Origin: Escherichia phage vB_EcoS_HdK1
DNA length: 64,000 nucleotides
Sequence record: MK373794.1
Direction: 5' to 3' (one strand)
Shown here: positions 1-63,600 of the stretch, piece by piece
How the letters are laid out: every line of letters starts with the position of its first letter
Position numbering within the stretch: the first letter of the stretch is position 1
Notes under the pieces: model-generated
Databases searched by the model: none
What the model was told of the DNA's origin: nothing
Seen by the model: only the letters and a program-made list of their open reading frames with translations
Program-made: the position numbers and the translations under genes

Positions 1-339
1 ATAAAGGGGTCTCGTGGGGTCGTCAGTAGACAACTCAAAAATAAAAAATCTTTATAAAATTTATATAAATACACACATATACACATTTTTACCTTATTTT
101 TCATGCACTTACCTCCTTTCATTTCGTATATTAAGCGACAATATACGAGCAATATAAGAAATATTTGTTGCGCAACAACGAGGCGCTCACAAGCTCGCGC
201 ACGCGCATAATGCGGGCACGCGGTCTAACACAAAAGAAAATTGAATTGCAAGCGATTTTTGCTGAGGTAACTCTCGAAGCGAAAGCGATTTGCGAGTTTG
301 AAATTTTGTAGCCCGAAAACGATTCTATTTTATGGTATA

Positions 340-660
340 AATGTCGGATTTTTCGGTGAAAGGTGGCTTTTCGGTGAGGTTGGGTGGCTGGGATCGGTGT
401 AACTGGTAGCCCATAAAGCGAAAATAGCCGCGAAAACGGGGCACGCAGCGCGATTAAATGGTTGGATCAGTGTAAGGGTGGCGGTGAGGGGGCGAAAATG
501 CCGCAAAATCGCTTACAGGGATGCAGGGAGTGGGCCGCTGTAAGGGCGTATAAGGCGATTAAATTGGAGTCTATGGTAATGTATGGAAGATGGATTTAGG
601 CTCTTAGAGCGCGAATGGTGGAGCTATGGGTGAGGAATATGTGGTCAGCAGGGTAGCGCG
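340..660. repeat. Non-coding G-rich region with reiterated CGGTGAGG / TGTAAGGG-like short motifs
   Basis: No ORF of 60 aa or more; repeated motifs such as cggtgaaagg, cggtgagg, cagtgtaaggg, ggcggtgaggggg, gctgtaaggg, gggtgagg read directly in the sequence. Confidence 0.5.
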
Positions 661-675
661 GGAGGTTATGCAGGT

Positions 676-714
676 ACAAAAACGAAAGCGCCCCGTTGGA
701 CTTCAACAGGGCGC
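676..714 (-). terminator. Rho-independent terminator candidate downstream of the leftward small-gene operon
   Basis: GC stem gcgccc / gggcgc (688..693 and 709..714) with 15-nt loop; on the minus strand it is followed by a T-rich tract (revcomp of 676..687). Lies just past the stop of CDS 738..986. Confidence 0.4.
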
Positions 715-737
715 GGATTGTATAATGCTTTTAGAAG

Positions 738-986
738 TTATTTACTAGTTAATAATACCGCCCAGGTATTATCTGGAAGCGTACCAACTCCGAGTATCTT
801 AAACTGAAGCGACTTGTTCTGCATGTTGTAGTTGTCGAGTAACTCCTGGGCAGCCGCAGCAGCGTTCGCTTCACCGTTCAGGTTGTAGTCGTTTGCAGTT
901 ATTGCACACATACCGAGACCGACCGCTTTGAAGCGCATACCTTTGGATTGAGTCGGTGCAAGTGCTTTAACATGGATAGCGTTCAT
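738..986 (-). CDS. hypothetical protein (82 aa)
   Basis: ORF with GGAGA Shine-Dalgarno-like sequence upstream of the ATG; balanced composition. Confidence 0.6.
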   Translation of the reverse strand: MNAIHVKALAPTQSKGMRFKAVGLGMCAITANDYNLNGEANAAAAAQELLDNYNMQNKSLQFKILGVGTLPDNTWAVLLTSK

Positions 987-1015
987 ATTATTTATCTCCG
1001 TTACAATTTGAAAGG

Positions 1016-1279
1016 TTAGCAGTTTTTTAACAGGTTGATGAAGCCCACCAGCGTGGACGCTGTTGCAACCAGGCGGCCCATAGTATGCAGTTCCGCGTAA
1101 ACTTTACCGTCGTCAAACACAGTTAAATAAACGTTAAGACCATTGCAACGGACGCGATATTTGCGCGAGTTATTACCAAAAGTTTCCAGCTCTGCGGTGA
1201 TAGTCGCAAGATTAGCTATACGTTTGCCGATAATGCGGCGAGTGATAGTGGACTGGTTTAATACTGTAGACATAATCAT
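1016..1279 (-). CDS. hypothetical small protein (87 aa); paralog of 2588..2893
   Basis: ORF with AGAGGAA RBS; N-terminal motif QSTITRRIIGKR shared with the protein at 2588..2893 (QSQITKRIIGKR). Confidence 0.6.
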   Translation of the reverse strand: MIMSTVLNQSTITRRIIGKRIANLATITAELETFGNNSRKYRVRCNGLNVYLTVFDDGKVYAELHTMGRLVATASTLVGFINLLKNC

Positions 1280-1341
1280 TTCCTCTGTTAACTATGCGAA
1301 GTGCATATTATTGCCCACTGTTACTATGGGCAATGTATATG

Positions 1342-1506
1342 TCACTCAGCGGACACATATTCTAACGCTTCTGATAGTGTAGCGAAGTAACCATCGCTCA
1401 CCAGATTAATAGCGTACTCAAGTTGATCGCGGGTCAGGTTGCGAAACTTGTTACGGATGTGATAGCAACGACCGCGATAAATAACCTGGAAATAGTTGCG
1501 TTCCAT
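1342..1506 (-). CDS. hypothetical small protein (54 aa; ORF-track version 1342..1662 is probably over-extended)
   Basis: Internal ATG at 1506 is preceded by AAGGGGA RBS; the longer ORF overlaps the well-formed gene 1517..1762 in another frame. Confidence 0.4.
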   Translation of the reverse strand: MERNYFQVIYRGRCYHIRNKFRNLTRDQLEYAINLVSDGYFATLSEALEYVSAE

Positions 1507-1516
1507 AATTATCCCC

Positions 1517-1762
1517 TTATGCAACGATGAACGCGTAACCGCTTTGATCCGGGAGTTCACCACCGGAAAGAATTTCAAACTCAACGCCCGCTTTATCGCT
1601 GAACTTTTTGATAAGCTCTTCCGCTGCGGCGCGGTGGTTGCCGTAAACACCAAGATCGTCACGCCACGTGATAGTCAAGGAGCCGTTCCAACCTGTTGCT
1701 TTTACGCGCGGGTTACGGGTGGCAGTCGGGTTCATGAATTTTGTGATGATAGCTTGAGCCAT
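1517..1762 (-). CDS. hypothetical protein (81 aa)
   Basis: ORF with GGAG RBS upstream; protein-like composition. Confidence 0.55.
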   Translation of the reverse strand: MAQAIITKFMNPTATRNPRVKATGWNGSLTITWRDDLGVYGNHRAAAEELIKKFSDKAGVEFEILSGGELPDQSGYAFIVA

Positions 1763-1767
1763 GATAA

Positions 1768-1953
1768 TTACTCCGGTAAAATTACAGTGACGTTAATATT
1801 TGCAAGGCGAGCGCACTCGCGGAAACCTTTTACATAAGCATCCATTTCGTCATAGGATGCGAAAGTTGCGTCCGGGACTGGTCCGTTGTTAATATTCACG
1901 CAATATTCGTGTTCGTCCAGGTCAACCCAACAAGTCAGAACGATAGTTTCCAT
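1768..1953 (-). CDS. hypothetical small protein (61 aa; start at internal ATG)
   Basis: ATG at 1953 preceded by GGAGGG RBS; ORF-track version extends to 1986. Confidence 0.45.
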   Translation of the reverse strand: METIVLTCWVDLDEHEYCVNINNGPVPDATFASYDEMDAYVKGFRECARLANINVTVILPE

Positions 1954-2031
1954 ATTATTTGCCCTCCGTATAATACAGACCCGCAACTATTGGAGCTCCG
2001 AAAACTAAGAAAGCTAATAAATAGAACATAA

Positions 2032-2511
2032 TTAGTTACCCCCTTTATTGTTGAGCCCGTTGAATTTACGCCATGCGTAGAATTCAATCGTTGCATTATT
2101 AATATTCCAACCATTAGCTTTCGCAAGGTCACGGACGTTACCAATAGTTGGCACACCATCAGGCAACATATTATCCAGGGCATTCCAAACGTCTGCGCAT
2201 TTACCTTTAATCGGGCGACGAACCCCGTTGCGCGTTTCGCTGCGCGTTTTGCTCTTGGCTGGAGCGACCGGAGCTTGTTGTGTGGTCACTTCCACGACAG
2301 TCGCTTTATCAGCTTCCACCAGATCGCTAGCTGCCTTATTAACCGCGCTTTCGCTGTACCAGTAGCGACCACCGTCTTCGTGCGGTTCCTGGTGAATAAA
2401 GCTATTTGCTGTCGCAGTGTCCACATCCAGAACCTTTTTTAAGGCACGGCGAGCGTTAGACATAGTGGCGAAGAAGCGAGCGTCTTTTGCTACGCGAGTG
2501 ATAGTAACCAT
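2032..2511 (-). CDS. hypothetical protein (159 aa)
   Basis: ATG at 2511 with GGAGA RBS; ORF-track version 2032..2526. Confidence 0.55.
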   Translation of the reverse strand: MVTITRVAKDARFFATMSNARRALKKVLDVDTATANSFIHQEPHEDGGRYWYSESAVNKAASDLVEADKATVVEVTTQQAPVAPAKSKTRSETRNGVRRPIKGKCADVWNALDNMLPDGVPTIGNVRDLAKANGWNINNATIEFYAWRKFNGLNNKGGN

Positions 2512-2587
2512 TGTGAATATCTCCATGTTGTTCTAGCGGATTGCTAGTGGGAGCCCACTGTTACAATGGGCAACCATTAGCACGCTA

Positions 2588-2893
2588 TTATTGTTGAATA
2601 GCTTTATCTATCATTGCGATGAAGCAGAACACAGACCAAAGGCTATTCGCTTGGCATACTGCGCGACCATACATTACGCTATAAGAGCTGACAGTACCGT
2701 CCTCGTTAATGCGAATATATAACGCGGTGCTGGAATACTTTTCGTTGCCCGGGAGCATTACTAAATACTCGTCGAAACCCCAATCCCCGTCGACTTTTTC
2801 CGCAGTAAGGCCCAGTTGGTGCAGTCGCTTGCCAATAATGCGCTTAGTAATCTGAGATTGGGACATGGAACGCGGTAAGTAGATAATGGACAT
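2588..2893 (-). CDS. hypothetical small protein (101 aa); paralog of 1016..1279
   Basis: ATG at 2893 with AGGGAGA RBS; shares the ITKRIIGKR N-terminal motif with 1016..1279; ORF-track version extends to 3010. Confidence 0.55.
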   Translation of the reverse strand: MSIIYLPRSMSQSQITKRIIGKRLHQLGLTAEKVDGDWGFDEYLVMLPGNEKYSSTALYIRINEDGTVSSYSVMYGRAVCQANSLWSVFCFIAMIDKAIQQ

Positions 2894-2968
2894 AATGCAA
2901 TCTCCCTTCGGGTGAGGCGGGCGCGGAACCCGTGTCCCGCTTAACAACCCCCTTAACCCTACACAGTT

Positions 2969-2997
2969 ATAGTATGACAACGGGGTATCAGATGCAA
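2969..2997 (-). promoter_or_regulatory. sigma70-like promoter candidate driving leftward transcription of 2893..738
   Basis: Minus strand reads TTGCAT-N17-TACTAT (revcomp of 2992..2997 and 2969..2974). Confidence 0.25.
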
Positions 2998-3073
2998 CTA
3001 TTATCTGCAATATTTTAGAACTTTTTTAGTTGTGTTTCATAATAATAACATCCGGGACTATGCGGTAGATGGT

Positions 3074-3147
3074 GTGCCGGAAATACCAGGTAGCGCGAGC
3101 GTGCCGAAAATACCAGGTAACAGCACGCGCCGAACATACCAGGTAGC
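3074..3147. repeat. Three 21-bp direct repeats (iteron-like), consensus GyGCCGrAmATACCAGGTArC
   Basis: gtgccggaaataccaggtagc (3074..3094), gtgccgaaaataccaggtaac (3101..3121), gcgccgaacataccaggtagc (3127..3147); spacing 27 and 26 bp; non-coding region. Confidence 0.6.
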
Positions 3148-3535
3148 ACATACATAGACAGCACATAGTGGGCAGGTGGATAGTAACAGATGCAATTATA
3201 CTGGACGGTACAGTATAGTCATGTAATAGATAGCATACTAATTAAATAAAAAATAATAACGCGTGTAACAATAAACAACGTTACAGTAGAGCGCGCAACA
3301 GTCACATGACGTAACAATCACCTCACTGACGATCACGGGACGTTATAGTAACGCCGCGGGGCGGCTCTTAGATCTCTGCCAAGGATTCTAGACGTAAACA
3401 TTGAATCGCCACTAGACTATTTACATCACAACCTCACTCCTCACACAATAATACATAGAATTTAAATCCGTATATAAATACTCGAGATAGTATCTACATA
3501 TTCGAGGATGAGTGCTCAATCATTGTAGGTTATAA

Positions 3536-5222: not shown

Positions 5223-5576
5223 ATGAGCTTGCAACGTTTTGACAATGCAGAACTCGCGTGTGAATTTGCAAAGCGCAAGTTCGCTAAAACAGGTACGCCG
5301 CGATGCGTGCACGCGGCTATTGGGCAAAATGGGGCAAAGTATTGGTACGTTGGTACAGTAGCTCAGATCAAGCGAAGATTCGCGACTACGCTCGAAATGC
5401 GCCGGCTTGGGTCCCCTACACTTGTACGAAACAGGCACTTGGATAAAGAGGAAATTTATCAATTTCTCAGAAATTACACTGGTAAAGAGAATAGATTTCA
5501 GGTTGCAGCGAAAGAGTTTAATATTGGTCTTTCCACTGCTTATAAAATTTATCACATATATGGGCGTTTAATATGA
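5223..5576 (+). CDS. hypothetical protein with C-terminal helix-turn-helix-like segment
   Basis: C-terminal KEFNIGLSTAYKIYHIY resembles an HTH; otherwise unassigned. Confidence 0.45.
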   Translation: MSLQRFDNAELACEFAKRKFAKTGTPRCVHAAIGQNGAKYWYVGTVAQIKRRFATTLEMRRLGSPTLVRNRHLDKEEIYQFLRNYTGKENRFQVAAKEFNIGLSTAYKIYHIYGRLI

Positions 5577-6076
5577 CCGCAATTGCTTATCGTAATGGGA
5601 TATTAGCTGTAGATCGACAGGTTACATGGGGTAATATTGCAACGACTACGAATAAAGTTCATACTATCAGTATTCCAGGGATTGGTCTGTGTCTTGTTGC
5701 CATGTCTGGTAAACTACGTGCTGTAGATGACATTGTAGAACATTTACAAACTACGTCACGTGGACGCAAAGAACCTTTCTCAGATTTAAACCCAGATTCG
5801 CGTTATGGTATTGCTGTGACGCAGGAACTTGTCGTATATCCTATCTACGGGGATGGTAAATTAGGTCTACCGGACACTAACGAATTTATTGCGGAAGGTA
5901 GTGCGTTTGAGTTCTTGATGGGTGCAATGGCGGGAGGTTGCACCGCCGAAGAGGCTGTACGACTGGCGTGCGTATACTGCGACAGTTGTGGTCAAGGGGT
6001 TAAGTTCTATGACGTAGCTTATACTCTAAAGTGGCGCAGTGTAAAATCGAGGAGAAACCATTTTGAAGAAGCCTAA
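5573..6076 (+). CDS. HslV / proteasome beta-subunit-like Ntn hydrolase (putative)
   Basis: N-terminus MTAIAYRNGILAVDRQVTWGN parallels HslV [25 protein letters not shown] (Thr nucleophile directly after Met); later IAEGSA resembles HslV IAIGSGG. Confidence 0.5.
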   Translation: MTAIAYRNGILAVDRQVTWGNIATTTNKVHTISIPGIGLCLVAMSGKLRAVDDIVEHLQTTSRGRKEPFSDLNPDSRYGIAVTQELVVYPIYGDGKLGLPDTNEFIAEGSAFEFLMGAMAGGCTAEEAVRLACVYCDSCGQGVKFYDVAYTLKWRSVKSRRNHFEEA

Positions 6077-6254
6077 GACTGGTCTGTTCCTTTGTGTTGG
6101 TGGACCTTTTGACGGTAAGCGTATACGCTTAACAACATCAGATTTGTATCCAAGTTCTTCCGTTTTCTCTGTTCCATCCTATAAAAACGGTGAGAAGGGG
6201 AAATACGTCTGGAATGATGAAATTCGAAACAGTGTAATCTGGAGAACATCGTGA
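6063..6254 (+). CDS. hypothetical small protein (63 aa, TTG start)
   Basis: GGAGAA RBS 8 nt upstream of TTG. Confidence 0.4.
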   Translation: MKKPKTGLFLCVGGPFDGKRIRLTTSDLYPSSSVFSVPSYKNGEKGKYVWNDEIRNSVIWRTS

Positions 6255-6478
6255 GTGATTCTACAAATGCGCAATTAGCCGCTGCAAGAGTGTATATGCG
6301 CGGAGCTGCCGCTGAGATTGATGCTTTGCCACAATTTGAAAAGCATGTACAGCAACTCGAAGATAAATTTAAGACTCTTAAAGATCTAGGGGATACGAAA
6401 GATGCTATAGCCTTTCTTCTTGCTATCCAATACTTGTCTATGGGGGTTGGTGACAAAGTATGTTCCTTAGAAGAATAA
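6251..6478 (+). CDS. hypothetical small protein (75 aa, GTG start)
   Basis: GGAGAA RBS upstream of GTG; coiled-coil-like composition. Confidence 0.4.
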   Translation: MSDSTNAQLAAARVYMRGAAAEIDALPQFEKHVQQLEDKFKTLKDLGDTKDAIAFLLAIQYLSMGVGDKVCSLEE

Positions 6479-6990
6479 TTGGTATTGTTGCACCTTGGAT
6501 ACCACTTGTCATAATTGTTATTCTAGCCAACTGGGCTTATGACAATGCCATAGAATCAGCTAGAAAGGAGGGTTTCGATGCCGGTGTGTCGTACCAAAAA
6601 GAAACTCAGAAAGCGGTTGATTTCGAGGAGGAGAAACGAAGAGCGTATGAGAAAGACACTATCGAACGTCAGTACAGATCTCGTATTGAATCTTTGGTTG
6701 CGATCTTAATAATTATCGCGCTACTAATGACAGGTTGCACAACGAAATCGCAACCGTCCGTAAGTACCTCGGTGACGCTACCGGCCCTCAGCCCGACAGC
6801 AAGACAACCGCCCAGATCGCCCGTGTGCTCACCGAGCTGTATTCAGAAAGCGTCACAGAATACAGACAAGTGGCAGAAGAGGCTGAAAAGTATCGTATTG
6901 CCGGCGAGCAGTGCGAACTACAGTATGATGCAATGCGAAATCCGCGTAAAGAAAAGTGATAAACTGCAAAGTCCTTGCCGGGTTGCGTAA
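6460..6990 (+). CDS. spanin-like locus (N-terminal TM domain; lipoprotein-box segment; coiled-coil C-terminus in another frame)
   Basis: N-terminal TM helix IIGIVAPWIPLVIIVILANWAY; signal-plus-lipobox LVAILIIIALLMTGC followed by Pro-rich tail; an overlapping frame (6690..6959) encodes a charged coiled-coil segment. Confidence 0.4.
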   Translation: MFLRRIIGIVAPWIPLVIIVILANWAYDNAIESARKEGFDAGVSYQKETQKAVDFEEEKRRAYEKDTIERQYRSRIESLVAILIIIALLMTGCTTKSQPSVSTSVTLPALSPTARQPPRSPVCSPSCIQKASQNTDKWQKRLKSIVLPASSANYSMMQCEIRVKKSDKLQSPCRVA

Positions 6991-7081
6991 CTAAACGTTC
7001 AATCTTAATTGCACATAATTGATTGTGTACATGTGATAATTCAACTATGCTCTATTCGGTTTAACTGAATGGAGCTTTTTT

Positions 7082-7516
7082 ATGACTGTGCAACCACGAG
7101 GTATCCGGAATAACAATCCGGGAAATATTCGTTGGGGTGATAATTGGAAAGGTCTTGTTCCTGAAAACAAACGGACTGACCGTTCCTTCTGTCAATTTAT
7201 CGATGTAAAATACGGTATTCGCGCCATTGCGCGTATTCTACTAAACTACCGCAACCGCGAAGGAATGAAACGTGTCGGAAACAAAGGGATTGACACTGTA
7301 CGGGAGATTATTTCGCGCTGGGCTCCGCCGAATGAAAATAACACTGAAGCCTATATTCAATCTGTGGCTAAGGCTTGTGGTGTTGGTGCAGAACAGCCGA
7401 TTTCAGTGACCGATGATAAAATCATGCTTGCAATCGTGAAAGCGATTATCAAACATGAGAACGGTGTGCAACCTTATTCTGATGAAGTTTTGCTCGCGGG
7501 TATTCACATGGCATAG
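7082..7516 (+). CDS. hypothetical protein; candidate endolysin by position only
   Basis: 144-aa soluble protein between the spanin-like and holin-like genes; conserved-looking motif RNNNPGNIR; no catalytic family confidently recognised. Confidence 0.3.
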   Translation: MTVQPRGIRNNNPGNIRWGDNWKGLVPENKRTDRSFCQFIDVKYGIRAIARILLNYRNREGMKRVGNKGIDTVREIISRWAPPNENNTEAYIQSVAKACGVGAEQPISVTDDKIMLAIVKAIIKHENGVQPYSDEVLLAGIHMA

Positions 7517-7529
7517 TAAGAGGTTATAA

Positions 7530-7838
7530 GTGTCGCCGAACTGGGATTGGAATATAGTTTTTATTCTCACTGCCATTGCGATGGTAGGGGGTTCCCTTGG
7601 CTACGCTGCAAGAACCCATGATGCTAAAGAAAGGTTCAGACTTAGTGTCTTCATTCAAGAGGGTGCTTTTTCTGCATTCTTTGGTTTCTTGATAGGTGTA
7701 ATTAACGTGGAACATGGTGTCTCACTGGGGCTCAGTGGGGCGTTCATAGGCGTGTTATCTTGGTCCGGTTCAAGAACCATGCTAAAGTTTCTACGGAGAA
7801 AGACAGAAGCATGTGACCGAGAAAAGGAAAGAGGTTGA
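7530..7838 (+). CDS. holin-like membrane protein (putative)
   Basis: Three predicted hydrophobic helices and a charged C-terminus (RRKTEACDREKERG); AGAGG RBS before GTG start. Confidence 0.45.
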   Translation: MSPNWDWNIVFILTAIAMVGGSLGYAARTHDAKERFRLSVFIQEGAFSAFFGFLIGVINVEHGVSLGLSGAFIGVLSWSGSRTMLKFLRRKTEACDREKERG

Positions 7839-8077
7839 TTATGCGTCACTTCATCAATGATCTTCTTATATTGTGTAAGAAACCGCGATTGCTTTTCATC
7901 TATATGATGATTGGACTTGCACAAATTGGAGTCAGTGCTATCGCCATTGATCAGATGCACAAGAAACACAGGGCAAACCTGCAACCTTCAACACCACCTG
8001 TTTATGTGGTCAATAAGGTTGAACAAATCAAACAAGACATCCGGGAGATAACGTACATTCCTAAAGTTGAAATGTAG
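7835..8077 (+). CDS. small membrane protein (single TM; possible antiholin or spanin component)
   Basis: 80 aa with central hydrophobic helix LLFIYMMIGLAQIGVSAIAI. Confidence 0.4.
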   Translation: MIMRHFINDLLILCKKPRLLFIYMMIGLAQIGVSAIAIDQMHKKHRANLQPSTPPVYVVNKVEQIKQDIREITYIPKVEM

Positions 8078-8092
8078 ATTGGTTTATAAGTA

Positions 8093-8130
8093 AAGCCCGC
8101 TCCTTGAATTTATATCGAGCGGGCTTTTTA
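8093..8130 (+). terminator. Rho-independent terminator
   Basis: Perfect 10-bp inverted repeat aagcccgctc / gagcgggctt (8093..8102 and 8118..8127) followed by TTTTT. Confidence 0.6.
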
Positions 8131-8160
8131 TTGACATTTGCTATAACCCTTGCAATTAAT
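8131..8160 (+). promoter_or_regulatory. sigma70-like promoter candidate for the terminase/morphogenesis operon
   Basis: TTGACA (8131..8136), then 18 nt, then ATTAAT; lies immediately after the terminator and about 50 nt before the terS RBS. Confidence 0.3.
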
Positions 8161-8206
8161 TAATCCACCGCTTATATTCGTGTCAAGAATCGACAGGAGT
8201 AACGTT

Positions 8207-38362: not shown

Positions 38363-38977
38363 TTACTTTTTACACGCTTCAAGAAATTCCCGACGCCATG
38401 TGTCACCAGTTACGTCCGGTAATACACCATCACCCAATGCAGTACGTCCGCGGAATGCTTTAGTGATGGTTGAGCTTCCGCATACCTGTTTAATACCGCG
38501 CGACTCCATGCACATATGTTTTGCATCGATGTAGACACACACAGCTTTCGGCTCTAAATGGTCACGGATAGCGTCCGCAATTTGATTAGTCAGACGTTCT
38601 TGGACTTGCAAACGTCGAGCAAAAGCATCAACCACACGAGATAACTTACTAAGGCCAACAATTTTTCCATTCGGGACATACCCGACCACCGCATGACCAA
38701 TAATAGGAGCCATATGATGCTCACAATGACTGTAGACAGGGATATCACGGACGATGACCATTTCATCACAGTTTTCCCCACCATCCTCAAACGTTTTGAA
38801 CAGGGATGCAATATCGACAGAATAACCCCCGAACCACGTTTCAAATGCTTTAGCGACGCGCAATGGAGTTTCAACTAGACCTTCACGCAAGTCATCGCCA
38901 CCTTCAATCAACTTTAAAATCTTTTCGATACTGTGCGAAATTTCTGCTCGGTTTGTCATCTTTGTAAATTCATTCAT
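38363..38977 (-). CDS. folE: GTP cyclohydrolase I
   Basis: Motif HCEHHMAPIIGHAVVGYVPNGKIVGLSKLSRVVDAFARRLQVQERLT; ATG at 38977 with AAGGAAA RBS (ORF-track TTG start at 39013). Confidence 0.85.
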   Translation of the reverse strand: MNEFTKMTNRAEISHSIEKILKLIEGGDDLREGLVETPLRVAKAFETWFGGYSVDIASLFKTFEDGGENCDEMVIVRDIPVYSHCEHHMAPIIGHAVVGYVPNGKIVGLSKLSRVVDAFARRLQVQERLTNQIADAIRDHLEPKAVCVYIDAKHMCMESRGIKQVCGSSTITKAFRGRTALGDGVLPDVTGDTWRREFLEACKK

Positions 38978-39003
38978 GGTTTGCAGTTTCCTTGTGTGGT
39001 CAA

Positions 39004-39540
39004 TTATTTGCAATAGTTAACATGGCATTTAGATGTTTCTTCAATGGTACATTCTACCAGTTCAACACCATATTGGTCAAGCAGTTGAGGACCAATTACG
39101 TCAACCATATATGCAGCTAAGTTTTCCGCAGTTGGGTTGAATGGTAAAGCTACCAAAGAATTAAAGAAAGGATCATAATCTTCATCCGTCACTAAATTGT
39201 TCTCGCGCGCAAACTTAGTCGATGCAACAACAATGAGCGAATTAATCAGGCTGTCTTGTTCCCAATGCAGGAACTTATGATCCCAATTATCTTCCAGCCA
39301 CTGGCAGAGCGTAGTTTTAACCACACTAAAGTCGATAACGCGGCCTACATCGTCCAGGGATCCTTCTAAAGCAAATCCACTTACAGACTTAACGTAACCT
39401 TCCGACAATGTTTTCTTTGGTGCGACTTTAAAATGGAACTTATAGTTGTGACCATGAAGATGGCGACATTTGCTTTCGTGACCTACAACACGATGACCAG
39501 CGCAAATCTCGTGTGTGAAACGAATAACAGTGTAACCCAT
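39004..39540 (-). CDS. queD: 6-carboxy-5,6,7,8-tetrahydropterin synthase (QueD-like), with C-terminal extension
   Basis: Zn-binding motif CAGHRVVGHESKCRHLHGHNY; GAGGAA RBS. Confidence 0.8.
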   Translation of the reverse strand: MGYTVIRFTHEICAGHRVVGHESKCRHLHGHNYKFHFKVAPKKTLSEGYVKSVSGFALEGSLDDVGRVIDFSVVKTTLCQWLEDNWDHKFLHWEQDSLINSLIVVASTKFARENNLVTDEDYDPFFNSLVALPFNPTAENLAAYMVDVIGPQLLDQYGVELVECTIEETSKCHVNYCK

Positions 39541-54696: not shown

Positions 54697-55746
54697 TAAC
54701 TTAATAACTTCGTTCATTCTCTCAATATCTACCAAATAACACTTCATTCTCGGTGGTGTAAACTCTGCGCCGAAGAAATTTGAAAAGTCCATTGGCCTCA
54801 TCTCGGTAAGAACTTCCATAGACATCAAACCATAGATTGTATTGTCTATGACCTGTAGGATGTTGTCATTTCTTGTCTGTTTAAAAGCCTTGAACTGGCG
54901 ACATACTGTGCATAGATCACTCCTTGTGACAATAAATGCGTCCTTAAACATGGGAAACCGTTTATATACACCAGCTTTAACTTCACCATCCAAGAACTTC
55001 TTAATGGAGTTCAGCATTATCTTCTCACGACTTGTACTGTCCGTAGAACCAATCTGCCCACTGTTACGCTTCTCTAAGAAACGCTCGTTACCCTGATCGA
55101 TAAATGACTCAGCCCAACGATAATGTTCCATAGTGACAACAGGACGCTCACTGTTATCTGCAACAGCAAGAAGAGAAGCTATACGCAATACCTTCAACGC
55201 CTTCCTTGTGTACATCTGACGAATTACTTCGTCTTGCACCTGCTCACCATCATTGCCGCTGTTCAGGAACTTCGCAACAATATTATCAAGATTATCAAAC
55301 GCTTCGTGTACCTCTGCTTCCATTTCAACATAACACGGAGCAGTCCCTGACATAATACGCACAGCTTGTTTATAGATAGCTCCAATAGTGCGCAGTATTG
55401 CTTCTGGATATTCCAGGAGCATACTCTTATTCATCAATGGGCGGTTAGCTGTACATTCCCATGCGATAATACGGGACATGAAACCACTCGACATCATGCG
55501 GTCATCTACGTTCCCGTAAAATTCATCTGGTGTTGTTTCACCTGCAAAACTATACGCCTTAACCTTACCGCCAGCAGTCGTATTATCTTTACTAGAGTGC
55601 TTTGAACCACCAGAGAAAGCATAGAAATGCCCCTTGTCATAAAGGGAAAGCATTTCATCCATAATGTCTTTAGCTTTACCGACTTCCATCTTACCGTTAC
55701 GGAAAAAATGCACCGACTTCAGTCTTATAGTTAATGGATGAGCCAC
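54694..55746 (-). CDS. primase-polymerase / helicase-like replication protein, C-terminal fragment (multiply frameshifted gene spanning 54694..57260)
   Basis: 350-aa ORF continuous in sequence with upstream fragments; frame break next to an 8-A homopolymer at about 55881..55888. Confidence 0.45.
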   Translation of the reverse strand: MAHPLTIRLKSVHFFRNGKMEVGKAKDIMDEMLSLYDKGHFYAFSGGSKHSSKDNTTAGGKVKAYSFAGETTPDEFYGNVDDRMMSSGFMSRIIAWECTANRPLMNKSMLLEYPEAILRTIGAIYKQAVRIMSGTAPCYVEMEAEVHEAFDNLDNIVAKFLNSGNDGEQVQDEVIRQMYTRKALKVLRIASLLAVADNSERPVVTMEHYRWAESFIDQGNERFLEKRNSGQIGSTDSTSREKIMLNSIKKFLDGEVKAGVYKRFPMFKDAFIVTRSDLCTVCRQFKAFKQTRNDNILQVIDNTIYGLMSMEVLTEMRPMDFSNFFGAEFTPPRMKCYLVDIERMNEVIKL

Positions 55747-55767
55747 AAGACATAACGGACGTATCCA

Positions 55768-56352
55768 TTATGACATCCTTGCGCAATGCAGCATCAGACG
55801 CATAGGTACTTGTATCCAAGACACGTTCGATACCAAATATCTGCTGACCGTCTTGACCGCCATAATTGGATACTTGAGAAAAAAAAGAATAGTTTCAATG
55901 TTGGAGCGAAACGCTTCTTTACCAATACCAGAACGTGCAATTAGTACAAAGTAGTTATTCAAACCACTTCGTGTGACTGTGTTCCACGCCTTACCGCACA
56001 TACCACTAAATAAAGCAAGCGCAGACAGAATACTAATGTCTTTAATAGGCAACAAGCTCGCTTTATACATATTACGCGCAACCTCGCCCATAAAGCCCGG
56101 AGGCCAAGCCAAACCGTCTGCCTGCTCTTCAGTGTAATTACCATCTGTAGTCAACACTTCTTCAGGTGGGCGTTCTGGTGTAGTTGCTTGACGTAGTTTT
56201 TCCGTGCGCTCTATAGCTGCATTAACGTTATTCTGAACTATCTGCATAAGTCCCATAGATTTAACATGGGCATCGTAGCGATAGTTGCGAATCATTCTAT
56301 CCAGGTGGTACGGACGTTTAATTTTTTCACCAGGCATACGACGGGGAATCAT
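55768..56352 (-). CDS. primase-polymerase / helicase-like protein, central fragment
   Basis: Segment ...NYFVLIARSGIGKEAF then out-of-frame tail; overlaps the upstream fragment in another frame. Confidence 0.4.
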   Translation of the reverse strand: MIPRRMPGEKIKRPYHLDRMIRNYRYDAHVKSMGLMQIVQNNVNAAIERTEKLRQATTPERPPEEVLTTDGNYTEEQADGLAWPPGFMGEVARNMYKASLLPIKDISILSALALFSGMCGKAWNTVTRSGLNNYFVLIARSGIGKEAFRSNIETILFFLKYPIMAVKTVSRYLVSNVSWIQVPMRLMLHCARMS

Positions 56353-56474
56353 CGTAACGGCTACTCATTGGTGAATACATGAATAGACGTCTTACCTGGA
56401 AATTGTACTTACTCTTAAAGCAAAGAAAGTCAATTAATGCAAATTCTGCTTCAGACTGAGAAGGGAAACAACGT

Positions 56475-56855
56475 TCACCGATTAGAAGTATCAACTTCTT
56501 CAGCTCTCCAACGACCCTCCCATAGCTGCTTAAACAATGTTCCGTTTTCTTGTTCGCACAACTGAATATAGACATCCTGGTCTTCCATTGCATATGGGTC
56601 GTTACTAAAATCTTCTTCAGTAAGTTCCAGCATTTGGAAGCCATCAGACTCATTAATCTCACTCATCTCAGACATAAGTTGGATGAATGAGATTAGCGAT
56701 ATACCCTTCGCTTTCACTGCCTGGAGCACCAGACACAGTGCGCGGGAGTAAAGTAACATCCCAGTGATCCCCTGTACAGATAATAAAACGATACTGGGAA
56801 TACACTTCCACACCGTCACGGCGCTTACCAGCCTGAGGGGATGGAATAAATCCAT
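56475..56855 (-). CDS. primase-polymerase-like protein, internal fragments (at least 3 frames used between 56327 and 56871)
   Basis: Protein-like segments alternate between frames, e.g. TEISRSGDGLHTWIYSIPSGW then AGKRRDGVEVYSQYRFII then SEMSEINESDGFQMLELTEEDF. Confidence 0.35.
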   Translation of the reverse strand: MDLFHPLRLVSAVTVWKCIPSIVLLSVQGITGMLLYSRALCLVLQAVKAKGISLISFIQLMSEMSEINESDGFQMLELTEEDFSNDPYAMEDQDVYIQLCEQENGTLFKQLWEGRWRAEEVDTSNR

Positions 56856-56894
56856 GTGTGCAACCCATCACCGCTTCTGGAAATTTCCGTATAG

Positions 56895-57260
56895 CTATGG
56901 AAACGATTCAACAATCTTCTTATATCGCTCACCAGCAACTTTCTTTTCCATTTCAGACATGGTATCTTTAATGTCCATGTCGATACAACAGAACGGGTCA
57001 CTTGGAAGTAGATAGAAACCTAAACGCAAGTTATGACCAATCTCGTTATAATAACGAACGCAGCGTTCAGCATCTTCAAAAGACATAAGTAAATGCAGGT
57101 TAGACGGTTTCTTATCATTACCGTCTTTACGAAGTGGGACCATATCCCCTAAATCATCGTCCCATACATAAGGTTGTTTTTCTGATGATGTACCCGGATG
57201 GAAACCGCAGACAGCCCACTGTTCGTATTGTTTAATTTCTTGAGGAAAAAGTTCCAGCAT
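56895..57260 (-). CDS. primase-polymerase (AEP superfamily) N-terminal fragment
   Basis: Prim-pol-like pattern EQWAVCGF...KKP...LMSFEDAER...GHNLRLGFYLLPSDPFCCIDMDIKD (DxD motif); downstream SGDGLHTW motif in a shifted frame. Confidence 0.5.
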   Translation of the reverse strand: MLELFPQEIKQYEQWAVCGFHPGTSSEKQPYVWDDDLGDMVPLRKDGNDKKPSNLHLLMSFEDAERCVRYYNEIGHNLRLGFYLLPSDPFCCIDMDIKDTMSEMEKKVAGERYKKIVESFP

Positions 57261-58605: not shown

Positions 58606-58815
58606 TTAGATAGAGCGAAGAGCCTGCAACTCTTTCTCCAATTGGTCGATTCGCATATCACGATGTCCCAACTCCGCAGCAATAGCACTTTTACTATGCA
58701 GTTGTTCGGACGTCATTGCCATAACGTGACGAGAATAAAAACCACCAGCTTTATCTAATTCAAAAGCGTCACGCTCTTGATATAAACGCACACATTCTTT
58801 ACTCATCTTTGCCAC
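58606..58815 (-). CDS. hypothetical protein (69 aa)
   Basis: ORF in the early-gene array. Confidence 0.4.
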   Translation of the reverse strand: MAKMSKECVRLYQERDAFELDKAGGFYSRHVMAMTSEQLHSKSAIAAELGHRDMRIDQLEKELQALRSI

Positions 58816-59158
58816 CTTCTTTATTCAGTTGACTACATGCTGGAGTCCATTGTCCGTTCAATGTCCGCTTAAGATCATCTTTGCGCATACGTTCGAACCA
58901 TTCAGTGTGGTCATGAGGATTGTCGCTTACTTTATAGTCAATATTAACACACGTTTCTTTGAAATCCATACCTTCCAGGTCCACGTTATAACAGATATCT
59001 ATTTCAATACCTGGCTCAGTTAATACCCAAAAACCATCGCCATCGATACATTCGCACCACTGAGGCTCATTCTCGAACGCAGTTAAAGTACCGTCCTCGT
59101 CGACCGCAAGGTATTTCGCCCACACTGGAACAAACAACACTTCACCGAAGTATCGCAC
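58799..59158 (-). CDS. hypothetical protein (119 aa)
   Basis: ORF in the early-gene array. Confidence 0.45.
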   Translation of the reverse strand: MRYFGEVLFVPVWAKYLAVDEDGTLTAFENEPQWCECIDGDGFWVLTEPGIEIDICYNVDLEGMDFKETCVNIDYKVSDNPHDHTEWFERMRKDDLKRTLNGQWTPACSQLNKEGGKDE

Positions 59159-59175
59159 AGCCTTCTGGAGTAAGA

Positions 59176-59505
59176 TTAATTTGCATGTTCACCTCGAAGC
59201 AGACGCTCGAGCTTCGATTTATTTTTGATAAGCTGATATTGCCGATCCACCACAAGCGCCTTCTGACGGTTACGCATAAGGTATTCGAACGCACTTTGAA
59301 AATCTTCGACTTTACCTTCATAACCTAAAGCCTTGGCGACGTGCGACACGCGATGGAACAGAAAGTCCGCAAAGTCCATAATTTCCATCGCATTGACAAT
59401 AGCGTCAAGTAAATCAGGATTTATATTCGGGTCCACCTTTTTAGCTTGTTCAAGAAGTCGCACCTTTGCTTTATATAAAGGTGAATTGCTTACTGTTTGC
59501 ATCAC
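59176..59505 (-). CDS. hypothetical protein (109 aa)
   Basis: ORF in the early-gene array. Confidence 0.45.
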   Translation of the reverse strand: MMQTVSNSPLYKAKVRLLEQAKKVDPNINPDLLDAIVNAMEIMDFADFLFHRVSHVAKALGYEGKVEDFQSAFEYLMRNRQKALVVDRQYQLIKNKSKLERLLRGEHAN

Positions 59506-59771
59506 TTCCTCCAGATATCACGCGATTCTTTAATACGGATGTTATACCGTATAAGTTGCTGCATAACTTTATGCAGGTCATCGAGATGCTTCCTTAAACG
59601 AAGACGTTTCTTGATAGCCCACAAGTTCTTCATATCCGTTCGTTGGAGATCCTCCCTTAAATACAATGAAAAGTCAGTCTGGTGATCTAAGATAAATTGG
59701 ATACGCATCAAAGTATCCGACTTACGATAATCAGGATACCACTTAGGAAGCACATCTTGTTCGCCAATCAT
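59502..59771 (-). CDS. hypothetical protein (90 aa)
   Basis: ATG at 59771 with GGAG RBS; corresponds to the C-terminal third of ORF-track 59502..60278, which appears chimeric. Confidence 0.45.
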   Translation of the reverse strand: MIGEQDVLPKWYPDYRKSDTLMRIQFILDHQTDFSLYLREDLQRTDMKNLWAIKKRLRLRKHLDDLHKVMQQLIRYNIRIKESRDIWRK

Positions 59772-59772
59772 C

Positions 59773-60393
59773 TTACGCTCCAAACTGATCAATGTATTCA
59801 ATGAGCTCTTGCAATTCTTGCTGTAACTGCACATTACCACTATTATTCGTCTGAAGTCTAACGAGGCGTTCCTTGATATGTGCAATGTGGTTAGTGCCCA
59901 TCCGACGCTTCTGTACATCACACCAGCGAACAACACCATCTTCAATATATGCACGACGGGCTTTACCACGCGGGTATCGCAGCGGCGCCGAATTTCACAC
60001 TTATCGCCCACCCACTTAAAGCCCAGGATCATAACAGCGTTACCTTCCGTATCAGGACACACGTCAAAACAACTGTTGAACCCTTTACTGCGCATATACT
60101 CGTCGAGCGGAATCACCTTATCAGGCGACAACCATTGATACCCGAAGTAAATATCGACAGTGAACACCGTACCCAACATCGGAGCCGACCAGCACATATA
60201 CATCCGCCCGTCATCCAACTTCTTGACCGCATTCGGCCCGCAACACGAGGCCAGCCGCCTTCCACGCTTTGACCACATTAATCGTGTTGTCCTGCTCCTG
60301 AAAGATTGCGTCTGCCTGCATATATGTAGGCGCGTCCCAGCCCGAACATTTCCTTTACATGAGCATTAGTGATTTTAACCTTTTGATTGCGCA
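59773..60393 (-). CDS. hypothetical early protein, frameshifted (at least 2 frame changes)
   Basis: ATG at 60393 (MRNQKVKITNAHVKEMFGLGRAYIYAGR...) stops after 38 codons; protein-like sequence continues in two other frames down to a stop at 59773. Confidence 0.4.
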
Positions 60394-60446
60394 TAACCTC
60401 ACCTTTGATGATAATAAATCGATTAATTTTGAAATTCAGTTGCCGG

Positions 60447-60474
60447 TTTTATGTTTATTTTACGCAATGTGTTT
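60447..60474 (-). promoter_or_regulatory. sigma70-like promoter candidate for the leftward early operon
   Basis: Minus strand reads TTGTAT-N16-TAAAAT (revcomp of 60469..60474 and 60447..60452), about 50 nt upstream of the ATG at 60393. Confidence 0.35.
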
Positions 60475-60600
60475 TGCAATACAATATTGATATATTTTGT
60501 TTTTGCATTGCAATGTTTTTGTATTGCAAAAATTACAACAGTCTGAAGGTGAGAAATTGCAAATTTATAAAGATTGGTGAAAAAATGCACAATTTATAAA
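60455..60600. repeat. Cluster of TTGCAA / TTGCAAT palindromic half-sites and duplicated AATTTATAAAGATT element
   Basis: ttttgcaatacaat, tttgcattgcaatg, tgtattgcaaaaa, aaattgcaaattt; aatttataaagatt occurs twice (about 60562 and 60590). Confidence 0.5.
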
Positions 60601-60692
60601 GATTCAGCAATATACGAAACGGCGAAGCGAAGTGTATGAAAAATAAGGGAAAATTTCGAGAGTTGGGAGGTTTGTAGTGATTTATATTATTT

Positions 60693-63600
60693 ATAAAGGG
60701 GTCTCGTGGGGTCGTCAGTAGACAACTCAAAAATAAAAAATCTTTATAAAATTTATATAAATACACACATATACACATTTTTACCTTATTTTTCATGCAC
60801 TTACCTCCTTTCATTTCGTATATTAAGCGACAATATACGAGCAATATAAGAAATATTTGTTGCGCAACAACGAGGCGCTCACAAGCTCGCGCACGCGCAT
60901 AATGCGGGCACGCGGTCTAACACAAAAGAAAATTGAATTGCAAGCGATTTTTGCTGAGGTAACTCTCGAAGCGAAAGCGATTTGCGAGTTTGAAATTTTG
61001 TAGCCCGAAAACGATTCTATTTTATGGTATAAATGTCGGATTTTTCGGTGAAAGGTGGCTTTTCGGTGAGGTTGGGTGGCTGGGATCGGTGTAACTGGTA
61101 GCCCATAAAGCGAAAATAGCCGCGAAAACGGGGCACGCAGCGCGATTAAATGGTTGGATCAGTGTAAGGGTGGCGGTGAGGGGGCGAAAATGCCGCAAAA
61201 TCGCTTACAGGGATGCAGGGAGTGGGCCGCTGTAAGGGCGTATAAGGCGATTAAATTGGAGTCTATGGTAATGTATGGAAGATGGATTTAGGCTCTTAGA
61301 GCGCGAATGGTGGAGCTATGGGTGAGGAATATGTGGTCAGCAGGGTAGCGCGGGAGGTTATGCAGGTACAAAAACGAAAGCGCCCCGTTGGACTTCAACA
61401 GGGCGCGGATTGTATAATGCTTTTAGAAGTTATTTACTAGTTAATAATACCGCCCAGGTATTATCTGGAAGCGTACCAACTCCGAGTATCTTAAACTGAA
61501 GCGACTTGTTCTGCATGTTGTAGTTGTCGAGTAACTCCTGGGCAGCCGCAGCAGCGTTCGCTTCACCGTTCAGGTTGTAGTCGTTTGCAGTTATTGCACA
61601 CATACCGAGACCGACCGCTTTGAAGCGCATACCTTTGGATTGAGTCGGTGCAAGTGCTTTAACATGGATAGCGTTCATATTATTTATCTCCGTTACAATT
61701 TGAAAGGTTAGCAGTTTTTTAACAGGTTGATGAAGCCCACCAGCGTGGACGCTGTTGCAACCAGGCGGCCCATAGTATGCAGTTCCGCGTAAACTTTACC
61801 GTCGTCAAACACAGTTAAATAAACGTTAAGACCATTGCAACGGACGCGATATTTGCGCGAGTTATTACCAAAAGTTTCCAGCTCTGCGGTGATAGTCGCA
61901 AGATTAGCTATACGTTTGCCGATAATGCGGCGAGTGATAGTGGACTGGTTTAATACTGTAGACATAATCATTTCCTCTGTTAACTATGCGAAGTGCATAT
62001 TATTGCCCACTGTTACTATGGGCAATGTATATGTCACTCAGCGGACACATATTCTAACGCTTCTGATAGTGTAGCGAAGTAACCATCGCTCACCAGATTA
62101 ATAGCGTACTCAAGTTGATCGCGGGTCAGGTTGCGAAACTTGTTACGGATGTGATAGCAACGACCGCGATAAATAACCTGGAAATAGTTGCGTTCCATAA
62201 TTATCCCCTTATGCAACGATGAACGCGTAACCGCTTTGATCCGGGAGTTCACCACCGGAAAGAATTTCAAACTCAACGCCCGCTTTATCGCTGAACTTTT
62301 TGATAAGCTCTTCCGCTGCGGCGCGGTGGTTGCCGTAAACACCAAGATCGTCACGCCACGTGATAGTCAAGGAGCCGTTCCAACCTGTTGCTTTTACGCG
62401 CGGGTTACGGGTGGCAGTCGGGTTCATGAATTTTGTGATGATAGCTTGAGCCATGATAATTACTCCGGTAAAATTACAGTGACGTTAATATTTGCAAGGC
62501 GAGCGCACTCGCGGAAACCTTTTACATAAGCATCCATTTCGTCATAGGATGCGAAAGTTGCGTCCGGGACTGGTCCGTTGTTAATATTCACGCAATATTC
62601 GTGTTCGTCCAGGTCAACCCAACAAGTCAGAACGATAGTTTCCATATTATTTGCCCTCCGTATAATACAGACCCGCAACTATTGGAGCTCCGAAAACTAA
62701 GAAAGCTAATAAATAGAACATAATTAGTTACCCCCTTTATTGTTGAGCCCGTTGAATTTACGCCATGCGTAGAATTCAATCGTTGCATTATTAATATTCC
62801 AACCATTAGCTTTCGCAAGGTCACGGACGTTACCAATAGTTGGCACACCATCAGGCAACATATTATCCAGGGCATTCCAAACGTCTGCGCATTTACCTTT
62901 AATCGGGCGACGAACCCCGTTGCGCGTTTCGCTGCGCGTTTTGCTCTTGGCTGGAGCGACCGGAGCTTGTTGTGTGGTCACTTCCACGACAGTCGCTTTA
63001 TCAGCTTCCACCAGATCGCTAGCTGCCTTATTAACCGCGCTTTCGCTGTACCAGTAGCGACCACCGTCTTCGTGCGGTTCCTGGTGAATAAAGCTATTTG
63101 CTGTCGCAGTGTCCACATCCAGAACCTTTTTTAAGGCACGGCGAGCGTTAGACATAGTGGCGAAGAAGCGAGCGTCTTTTGCTACGCGAGTGATAGTAAC
63201 CATTGTGAATATCTCCATGTTGTTCTAGCGGATTGCTAGTGGGAGCCCACTGTTACAATGGGCAACCATTAGCACGCTATTATTGTTGAATAGCTTTATC
63301 TATCATTGCGATGAAGCAGAACACAGACCAAAGGCTATTCGCTTGGCATACTGCGCGACCATACATTACGCTATAAGAGCTGACAGTACCGTCCTCGTTA
63401 ATGCGAATATATAACGCGGTGCTGGAATACTTTTCGTTGCCCGGGAGCATTACTAAATACTCGTCGAAACCCCAATCCCCGTCGACTTTTTCCGCAGTAA
63501 GGCCCAGTTGGTGCAGTCGCTTGCCAATAATGCGCTTAGTAATCTGAGATTGGGACATGGAACGCGGTAAGTAGATAATGGACATAATGCAATCTCCCTT

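Follow-up and report, generated by a model that had tools for sequence, protein, structure and literature searches.

The 64,000-nucleotide stretch of DNA analyzed here (the window) is a Nonagvirus (phage 9g-like) genome, with 93.8-98.6% nucleotide identity to 17 deposited phages over positions 6200-8200. The region at 6460-8077 is the already annotated, ordinary lysis cassette of a 9g-like Escherichia coli phage and is not novel. The features of the cassette and its borders, in window coordinates, are as follows:

6460..6701, + strand: N-terminal part of the Rz-like i-spanin (codons 1 to ~81), comprising an inner-membrane transmembrane domain (TMD; aa 5-27) plus the first helical periplasmic segment
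6647..6701, + strand: o-spanin start, ATG 6647, +1 frame relative to the i-spanin; first 18 codons, lipoprotein signal peptide
6701..6702, + strand: site of a 1-nt deletion, GGTTGCCGATC in relatives and GGTTGCGATC in the window; one C of a CC pair is absent
6702..6959, + strand: i-spanin, C-terminal part (coiled-coil/helical periplasmic domain), stop TGA 6957-6959
6702..6990, + strand: rest of the o-spanin (signal-peptide end, lipobox MTGC and mature domain); stop 6988-6990
7049..7081, + strand: hairpin, 12-bp stem then U6, ending directly at the endolysin ATG
7082..7516, + strand: predicted endolysin of the Enc34/PHA02564 type, 144 aa, soluble (PDB 7Q47, phrog_873)
7530..7838, + strand: predicted holin, LydA/holin superfamily III, 102 aa, GTG start with AAGAGG upstream
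7841..8077, + strand: small protein with a single TM segment, 78 aa when read from ATG 7841 (the mechanical open reading frame begins at TTG 7835)
8092..8129, + strand: intrinsic terminator, 11-bp GC-rich stem AAAGCCCGCTC/GAGCGGGCTTT, then a T run

All 17 matching Nonagvirus records span at least 80% of the lysis region, and gene order was read from the annotation of 12. Every one of these 12 places the i-spanin/o-spanin pair first, followed by the endolysin, the holin, the small 1-TM protein, the terminator, and the terminase genes. Relative to the Nonagvirus cassettes (9g, JenK1, JenP1/P2, SE1, HdSG1, FritzHoffmann/Bas20, and ChristophMerian/Bas19), the window shares all five genes, with order and spacing unchanged, as well as the intergenic hairpin and the terminator, after which come terS/terL. 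It differs by the absence of one C at 6701, a loss that disrupts both spanin genes, and otherwise by point substitutions only. The records of two BASEL phages already carry the labels i-spanin, o-spanin, endolysin, and holin. An earlier note on this DNA had proposed a lysis cluster ordered as spanins, soluble protein, holin, and 1-TM protein; the cluster is supported by spanin, endolysin, and holin family matches together with the annotation of relatives, and the order stands as described. The note had also called that order unusual, but it is common to all 12 annotations and thus not peculiar to the window.

Lysis roles for all five cassette genes are predicted by homology; a literature search on Nonagvirus lysis genes retrieved no dedicated experimental study. 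The cassette forms the end of a rightward transcription unit, immediately upstream of the terminase genes of this E. coli/Salmonella siphovirus genus. As homology with the lambda/P1 paradigm suggests, the LydA-type holin (7530..7838) would build up in the inner membrane and trigger holes, through which the Enc34-type soluble endolysin (7082..7516) would exit to degrade peptidoglycan. In the last step, the two-component spanin would fuse or disrupt the outer membrane.

The protein encoded at 7082..7516 had been described as bearing the motif RNNNPGNIR but no recognised lytic fold. The motif is present at aa 9-17. The second statement is out of date, as the Enc34/PHA02564 family has a crystal structure: the protein matches the Enc34 endolysin's catalytic domain (PDB 7Q47) over residues 2-131 by phmmer (E=2.7e-31, 111.7 bits). 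The profile search that the note had suggested returned phrog_873, "endolysin" (E=2.9e-64), a lytic rather than a non-lytic family, and no second endolysin was seen in the annotation of the Nonagvirus relatives. Pfam and NCBIfam gave no match at E<=0.1; the Enc34-type endolysin family is therefore absent from those libraries. The hydropathy scan found no hydrophobic segment, and the protein has no signal, SAR, or TM segment.

The Enc34 endolysin uses a catalytic Glu131 and conserves Trp79 and Tyr95, and its ORF39deltaC construct is muralytic in turbidity assays (Cernooka et al. 2022, PMC8943055). Alignment to 7Q47 pairs these residues with Glu126, Trp80, and Tyr91, respectively, of the window protein, which also keeps the RGIRNNNPGNI N-terminal motif and the HENG motif containing the catalytic Glu of the Hafnia phage endolysin (ORF39). 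The product is thus probably an N-acetylglucosaminidase with a predicted catalytic Glu126. From the sequence match to 7Q47 we infer a lysozyme-alpha-lobe-like, all-helical fold; the AlphaFold2 model from the single sequence is all-helical but of low confidence (pLDDT 44.8). Compared with the Enc34 endolysin, the window protein is a 144-aa soluble, single-domain member that ends after the catalytic domain and contains no hydrophobic segment, and is therefore expected to require a canonical large-hole holin. Its annotation is thereby brought up to date: rather than an orphan, it is a soluble member of a structurally characterised family. Domains related to the Enc34-type endolysin also occur within virion, ejection, and tape-measure proteins (phrog_7182, phrog_2276; PDB 9VVP Gp29).

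The hairpin directly upstream (7049..7081) folds at -18.6 kcal/mol (z=-3.1) and gives a terminator-like match. The candidate endolysin Shine-Dalgarno sequence, GGAG, sits in its 3' arm. It may act as a leaky terminator/attenuator or serve to control translation. Among relatives the stem is invariant save one base in SP8, in which the U tract is also one T shorter; near-invariance leaves no covariation to test.

The holin gene begins 14 nt past the endolysin stop. Its product matches PF16083 over residues 12-83 (32.0 bits; Pfam gathering cut-off, 28.4) and the holin family phrog_785 (E=1.2e-27), and relatives annotate its counterpart as a holin. A holin-like protein with three TM segments had been proposed. 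The family assignment stands, while the hydropathy scan gives two strong segments (8-27 and 40-60) and a weaker one at ~64-80 that was placed by eye and is sub-threshold. The C-terminal tail is charged and basic (RRKTEACDREKERG). Small size, several TM segments, and a basic C-terminal tail are shared with phage P1 LydA (PF16083), although the similarity is only moderate. The gene that follows the window holin encodes a 78-aa 1-TM protein of phrog_16688.

This last gene likely starts at ATG 7841, because AAGAGG lies 7 nt upstream and the PHROG alignment pairs residues 3-80 with profile positions 1-78. Its product matched nothing other than its own family of unknown function, phrog_16688 (E=5.3e-56). 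The protein has one hydrophobic segment (aa 18-39; ~19-39 for 7835..8077), in agreement with the 1-TM protein described earlier, and it is predicted to lie N-in/C-out, with ~40 aa of periplasmic tail. The gene is kept at the cassette end in every relative examined; we infer only that its product might act as a lysis-timing regulator or antiholin. Downstream, before the terminase small subunit gene is reached, the terminator ends the lysis transcription unit. Its fold has an energy of -19.6 kcal/mol (z=-4.4), a stability that 0 of 200 shuffles reached, and a terminator is annotated at its counterpart in HdSG1 and SP8.

The spanin locus departs from this ordinary picture. The open reading frame at 6460..6990 encodes 176 aa with an N-terminal hydrophobic segment (aa 5-27; mean KD, 2.8, by hydropathy scan) and the lipobox MTGC at aa 90-93, preceded by an internal hydrophobic segment (LLMTGC). 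The earlier description of an N-terminal TM domain and a signal-plus-lipobox segment sharing one frame is therefore accurate for this frame, as is the placement of a coiled-coil C-terminal part in another frame (6690..6959). Following TGA 6687-6689, that second frame stays open from 6690 until its stop (6957-6959), and its product matches phrog_312 at positions 87-172 (E=1.2e-24) and Pfam PF10721 (DUF2514; 42.2 bits against a cut-off of 26). The N-terminal part in the first frame matches the same family, phrog_312 (Rz-like spanin), over residues 10-81 (E=6.2e-10), and residues 1-83 of the FritzHoffmann i-spanin align with window 6460-6708 in frame 1 at 98.8%. In the window, the i-spanin has no single uninterrupted frame: it passes from frame 1 to frame 3 at 6701, its C-terminal part lying in the -1 frame relative to its N-terminal part owing to the deletion, and the N-terminal frame runs on into the o-spanin frame up to 6990. 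The i-spanin reading frame is intact in 12 of 12 isolate relatives.

The o-spanin is interrupted at the same point. Its ATG at 6647 lies in the third frame, and the locus as a whole uses all three frames. By tblastn against the window, o-spanin residues 1-18 match frame 2 at 100% identity and residues 18-114 then match frame 1. In the window the start frame ends after 20 aa (MRKTLSNVSTDLVLNLWLRS, stop at 6707-6709). The ATG and the lipobox are consequently in different frames in the window but share one frame in relatives and after restoration of one C. The o-spanin body, at residues 80-157 of the 176-aa fused frame, matches phrog_11621, also an Rz-like spanin family (E=3.5e-21). The repaired o-spanin has a predicted lipidated Cys at residue 31 and a mature domain of 84 aa with 9 Pro and 5 Cys. 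An NCBIfam search with the repaired protein returned only lipoprotein matches (RNase A-like lipoprotein and RcsF) far under cut-offs, and these are treated as signal-peptide noise.

An embedded i-spanin/o-spanin pair with one frame change had been suggested. The pair and the single change are both there; the embedded arrangement is not. Because the o-spanin gene runs 31 nt past the i-spanin stop (6959) to its own stop at 6990, the pair belongs to the overlapped class. The coordinates in relatives agree (o-spanin 448..792 versus i-spanin 261..761; the BASEL o-spanin locus 448..792 corresponds to window 6647..6990). An embedded spanin of the lambda Rz/Rz1 type was rejected, since the o-spanin gene is not wholly within the i-spanin gene. 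Overlapped is the commonest class of two-component spanin (228 of 528 systems; Kongari et al. 2018, PMC6139136), and the same classification lists phage P2 lysB/lysC as an example. As is typical of this class, the window i-spanin has an N-terminal TMD and a helical periplasmic domain, the o-spanin lipoprotein begins in the +1 frame inside the i-spanin gene and ends past its stop, and periplasmic cysteines are present in both proteins. The mature o-spanin domain is longer than that of lambda Rz1 (84 versus 40 aa), and the spanin genes here come before those for the endolysin and holin instead of at the cassette end.

The two-frame appearance of the spanin locus arises because one C is missing at 6701, in i-spanin codon 81 and o-spanin codon 19. 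This single base lies inside their overlap, and its loss therefore breaks both genes. As written, the window encodes a fusion of i-spanin residues 1-81 to the o-spanin, a startless i-spanin C-terminal half, and a 20-aa o-spanin stub. Adding one C yields proteins of 166 and 114 aa, equal in length to those of annotated relatives, and the 166-aa i-spanin then matches PF10721 over residues 48-160 (43.8 bits; cut-off, 26). The comparison with relatives recommended in the earlier note covered 27 sequences, 12 Nonagvirus isolate genomes and 15 environmental contigs, and revealed an intact overlapped pair from which the window alone deviates by one C. The allele GCCGAT occurs in 12 of 12 isolate genomes by alignment and 15 of 15 environmental contigs; GCGAT is found in the window alone, and a search for the deletion allele in IMG/VR and metagenome contigs gave 0 of 15. 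The frame change had been placed near a TTT run at about 6690. Alignment with relatives instead locates it at 6701, as a single C in place of CC, and rejects the TTT run as the indel site: the run occupies 6693-6695, the deletion falls 6 nt downstream, and the run is not involved.

The remainder of the window indicates how such a change is to be read. Compared with both HdSG1 and FritzHoffmann, ~26 indels with lengths that are not a multiple of 3 occur only in the window, ~25 besides the one in the spanin locus, and most of them alter the length of a homopolymer. Examples lie at 13521, 14097, 14845, 15133, 19408, 20281, 21443, 42778, 44147, and 55703-56901. Among the single-base insertions checked, 19 of 19 duplicate the adjacent base. 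Fifteen of 51 conserved genes are spread over two or three frames, with amino acid identity continuing past the break. These include the genes for the major capsid protein, which is cut into two open reading frames, the tape measure protein (three frames), the primase (three frames), DpdA, and a RecA-like ATPase. The indel rate of ~1 per 2.1 kb means that a 531-nt locus would be struck ~22% of the time, and at that frequency the spanin locus needs no special explanation. The cassette is thus very probably an ordinary Nonagvirus lysis cassette whose two-frame spanin reflects a missing C, most likely a homopolymer-length error of sequencing or assembly. Error best explains the missing C because similar indels split the major capsid, tape measure, and primase genes. 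The missing base would then be neither a mutation of the living phage nor programmed recoding. As a biological feature, the frame change is not upheld, being a 1-nt deletion absent from 27 of 27 relatives in an error-rich genome.

Under many laboratory conditions, plaques can form without spanins, as for lambda Rz/Rz1. A spanin-null phage could therefore survive, unlike one with broken capsid or primase genes, and error is not provable from the sequence alone. We accordingly considered that the deletion is genuine and that the isolate, natural or laboratory, is spanin-defective, a reading we regard as improbable. We attach the same low probability to its fuller form, a naturally occurring double knock-out of i-spanin and o-spanin that still propagates and expresses the i-spanin::o-spanin fusion. 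Such a phage would lyse by holin and endolysin, with shear or low divalent cations breaking the outer membrane. The deletion is present in the sequence as given, and the conditional dispensability seen in lambda would make it tolerable. Moreover, the spanin change and its neighbour at 6027 are deletions, whereas the window-only indels are mostly insertions. Against a genuine event stand the ~25 other frame-breaking, mostly homopolymer-length indels found in the window only, which fall in indispensable genes such as those for capsid, tape measure, and primase and show the record to be unreliable at sites of just this kind, as well as the intact state of all 27 relatives and environmental contigs and a background rate that already predicts one such event in the spanin locus. 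If real, the deletion would merely be one more case of conditional dispensability of spanins.

Far less plausible is that the 176-aa fused frame encodes a functional single-chain spanin resembling a unimolecular spanin in outcome. The frame is open throughout and combines an N-terminal TMD, a helical segment, a lipobox, and a Pro/Cys-rich o-spanin domain, but topology and layout led us to reject it. With the first TMD oriented N-in, the next hydrophobic stretch (aa 72-98) would enter the membrane again from the periplasmic side, which would make both the lipobox Cys and the o-spanin domain cytoplasmic, with neither lipidation nor outer-membrane sorting; in addition, the allele is found only in this error-rich sequence. 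Programmed recoding, by -1 ribosomal frameshifting or transcriptional slippage near 6690-6701 to join two i-spanin halves that are both open and adjacent (the -1 frame opening at 6690, just ahead of the break), is effectively refuted, since 27 of 27 relatives encode the i-spanin in one frame and the arrangement is not conserved, the same base change also destroys the o-spanin, no X_XXY_YYZ slippery heptamer lies between 6687 and 6760, the sole heptamer in the reading frame (GGGTTTC at 6570) lies 120 nt upstream, with TGA 6687 closing the -1 frame there, and a scan for slippage found no homopolymer of at least 6 bases.

With a sequencing or assembly error as the preferred reading, the main value of the finding is one of quality control: as a copy of a well-known phage type, the window is rich in indels, and other frameshift, split-gene, or recoding findings in it should first be checked against relatives. 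The actual phage almost certainly carries an intact overlapped spanin pair like all its relatives.

Every record opened among the megablast matches belongs to the genus Nonagvirus (Queuovirinae), which identifies the window as a 9g-like siphovirus genome. The query, positions 6200-8200, matched 17 deposited phage genomes (identity 93.8-98.6%, query coverage 80% or more in every case); those opened were 9g, JenK1, JenP1, JenP2, SE1, HdSG1, SP8, BRET, ESCO3, PD328, and the BASEL phages FritzHoffmann and ChristophMerian. Positions 1-3388 (~3.4 kb) are duplicated at 60690-64000, and each of these window ends matches the two HdSG1 ends with the same indels, as would be expected if a long direct terminal repeat, like that of HdSG1, had been included in full at each end of the record. 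Two stretches, 38300-39515 and 58795-60690, share 81.7% and 89.7% identity with FritzHoffmann, with many gaps, while the rest of the genome is far closer. With locations near the FolE/QueD 7-deazaguanine genes and within the early-gene region, they look like mosaic replacements and not sequence errors.

An earlier note had called a putative lysis cluster here, and the open reading frames it described are present, listed here with the roles assigned in this analysis:

6460..6990, plus strand, i-spanin/o-spanin locus
7082..7516, plus strand, endolysin
7530..7838, plus strand, holin
7841..8077, plus strand, protein with one transmembrane segment (1-TM)

The description of 7082..7516 as having no recognised lytic fold is explained by the absence of any match in Pfam and NCBIfam, but it does not hold. 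The protein matches phrog_873, "endolysin" (E=2.9e-64), and crystal structure 7Q47 (E=2.7e-31, residues 2-131), solved for the catalytic domain of an endolysin from Hafnia phage Enc34 (family PHA02564; PMC8943055). Muralytic activity has been demonstrated for the Enc34 enzyme, whose fold is described as a permuted lysozyme alpha-lobe akin to GH73/GH23; its catalytic residue is Glu131, and Trp79 and Tyr95 are conserved (PMC8943055). Their counterparts in the HMMER alignment are Glu126, Trp80, and Tyr91 of the window protein; Glu126 sits in a conserved HENG motif, and both proteins share RNNNPGNI. Whereas the Enc34 endolysin carries a C-terminal membrane domain, the window protein lacks both this domain and any hydrophobic segment. 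We assign it as a soluble endolysin that would depend on a canonical holin. A single-sequence AlphaFold model (pLDDT 44.8) was too low in confidence for use. Given this lytic-family match and a FritzHoffmann annotation that lists no second endolysin, the lysis-cluster call stands.

The candidate holin, 7530..7838, scores above the Pfam cut-off for LydA holins, and a holin PHROG matches it as well. Starting 2 nt past its stop codon, probably at ATG 7841 (78 aa), the last gene encodes a conserved 1-TM protein (phrog_16688). In location and predicted topology (N-in/C-out) it could fit an antiholin or a regulator of lysis; a role in lysis timing is only a guess. The unit is closed at 8092-8129 by a strong terminator, which the HdSG1 and SP8 records also annotate. 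Between the spanin and endolysin genes, positions 7049-7081 form a 12-bp hairpin followed by U6, ending exactly at the endolysin ATG (-18.6 kcal/mol, z=-3.1), with the only GGAG in its 3' arm. Conservation of the hairpin is almost complete in 13 Nonagvirus genomes (only SP8 differs, by one stem base and one U-tract T), which leaves no covariation to examine. It could act as a leaky terminator/attenuator or in translational control of the endolysin.

The gene order had been flagged as unusual, and the spanins-endolysin-holin arrangement does reverse the lambda paradigm. It is not special to the window, however: the same order occurs in 12/12 annotated Nonagvirus records, and public records of two BASEL phages already label the genes so, making it a known property of the genus and not a discovery. 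By homology, the holin would permeabilise the inner membrane, giving the soluble Enc34-type glycosidase access to the murein, which it would degrade; the overlapped i-spanin/o-spanin complex would disrupt the outer membrane as the last step.

The spanin locus was correctly described as spanning two frames with one frame change. The 176-aa ORF 6460..6990 has hydrophobic segments at aa 5-27 and aa 72-98, the second ending in the lipobox MTGC. Its residues 10-81 match the N-terminal half of an Rz-like i-spanin (phrog_312) and residues 80-157 an o-spanin family (phrog_11621, E=3.5e-21), while frame 6690..6959 holds the i-spanin C-terminal half (phrog_312 positions 87-172, E=1.2e-24) and scores above the Pfam cut-off for PF10721. 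Read as it stands, the sequence fuses i-spanin residues 1-81 to the o-spanin (the 176-aa ORF), leaves the C-terminal half of the i-spanin orphaned, and yields only a 20-aa stub when translated from ATG 6647, the true o-spanin start.

In all 12 relatives examined, the i-spanin is annotated as a single unbroken gene of 498-501 nt. Alignment shows GGTTGCCGATC in all relatives versus GGTTGCGATC in the window; the one C missing at 6701 is the sole difference behind the break. The TTT run proposed in the earlier note lies 6 nt upstream and is itself unchanged. Because the site falls within the i-spanin/o-spanin overlap (i-spanin codon 81, o-spanin signal peptide codon 19), both genes are affected. 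With one C restored, the i-spanin has 166 aa and the o-spanin 114 aa, lengths as in relatives, the latter with a signal peptide, Cys31, and an 84-aa mature part containing 9 Pro and 5 Cys. Since the o-spanin stop (6990) lies beyond that of the i-spanin (6959), the pair is overlapped rather than embedded; in the BASEL records, the o-spanin likewise starts inside the i-spanin gene and ends 31 nt past it. Among the 528 systems surveyed by Kongari et al. (PMC6139136), overlapped pairs are the commonest class (228).

Just upstream of the cassette, 5573..6076 encodes an HslV-family peptidase-like protein (phrog_1040, E=3.5e-35), conserved in relatives and annotated there as hypothetical. Its final ~16 codons are altered (167 aa versus 164 aa in relatives) by another 1-nt deletion specific to the window, TT to T at 6027, which precedes the spanin deletion by 674 nt.

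Given how many errors this genome sequence contains, the unusual-looking spanin split most probably arose as a sequencing artefact. No X_XXY_YYZ heptamer or long homopolymer that could signal recoding occurs at the junction. Decisive is the genome-wide load of like lesions: ~26 indels of a length not divisible by 3 set the window apart from HdSG1 and FritzHoffmann alike (e.g., 13521, 14097, 14845, 15133, 15813, 19408, 20281, 21443, 37500, 42778, 44147, 48506, 55703-56901, 59167, 60237, and 60341). Most alter homopolymer length, and 19/19 single-base insertions inspected duplicate the adjacent base. By tblastn, 15 of 51 FritzHoffmann proteins are spread over 2-3 frames in the window, with amino acid identity running on past each break. 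Among them are the major capsid protein (visibly in two ORFs), the tape measure protein and primase (three frames each), DpdA, and a RecA-like ATPase. No viable phage could have all these genes broken, so the indels in them are sequence errors, and CC-to-C at 6701 belongs to the same class of lesion. At ~1 such indel per 2.1 kb, the expected chance of one in the 531-nt locus is ~22%, and no special explanation is needed. A true mutation of the phage would be tolerable, as spanins are conditionally dispensable, unlike capsid proteins. We nevertheless regard it as improbable: the deletion is confined to a window full of like lesions, and the intact CC allele occurs in 27/27 others, comprising the 12 isolates and 15/15 environmental contigs (7 IMG/VR, 8 metagenome) retrieved with a pattern accepting both alleles.

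Overall, the observation in the earlier note is confirmed and its interpretation supported in part, and the lysis cassette as a whole is already known. Other frameshift-type findings in the window should be treated as probable sequence errors.
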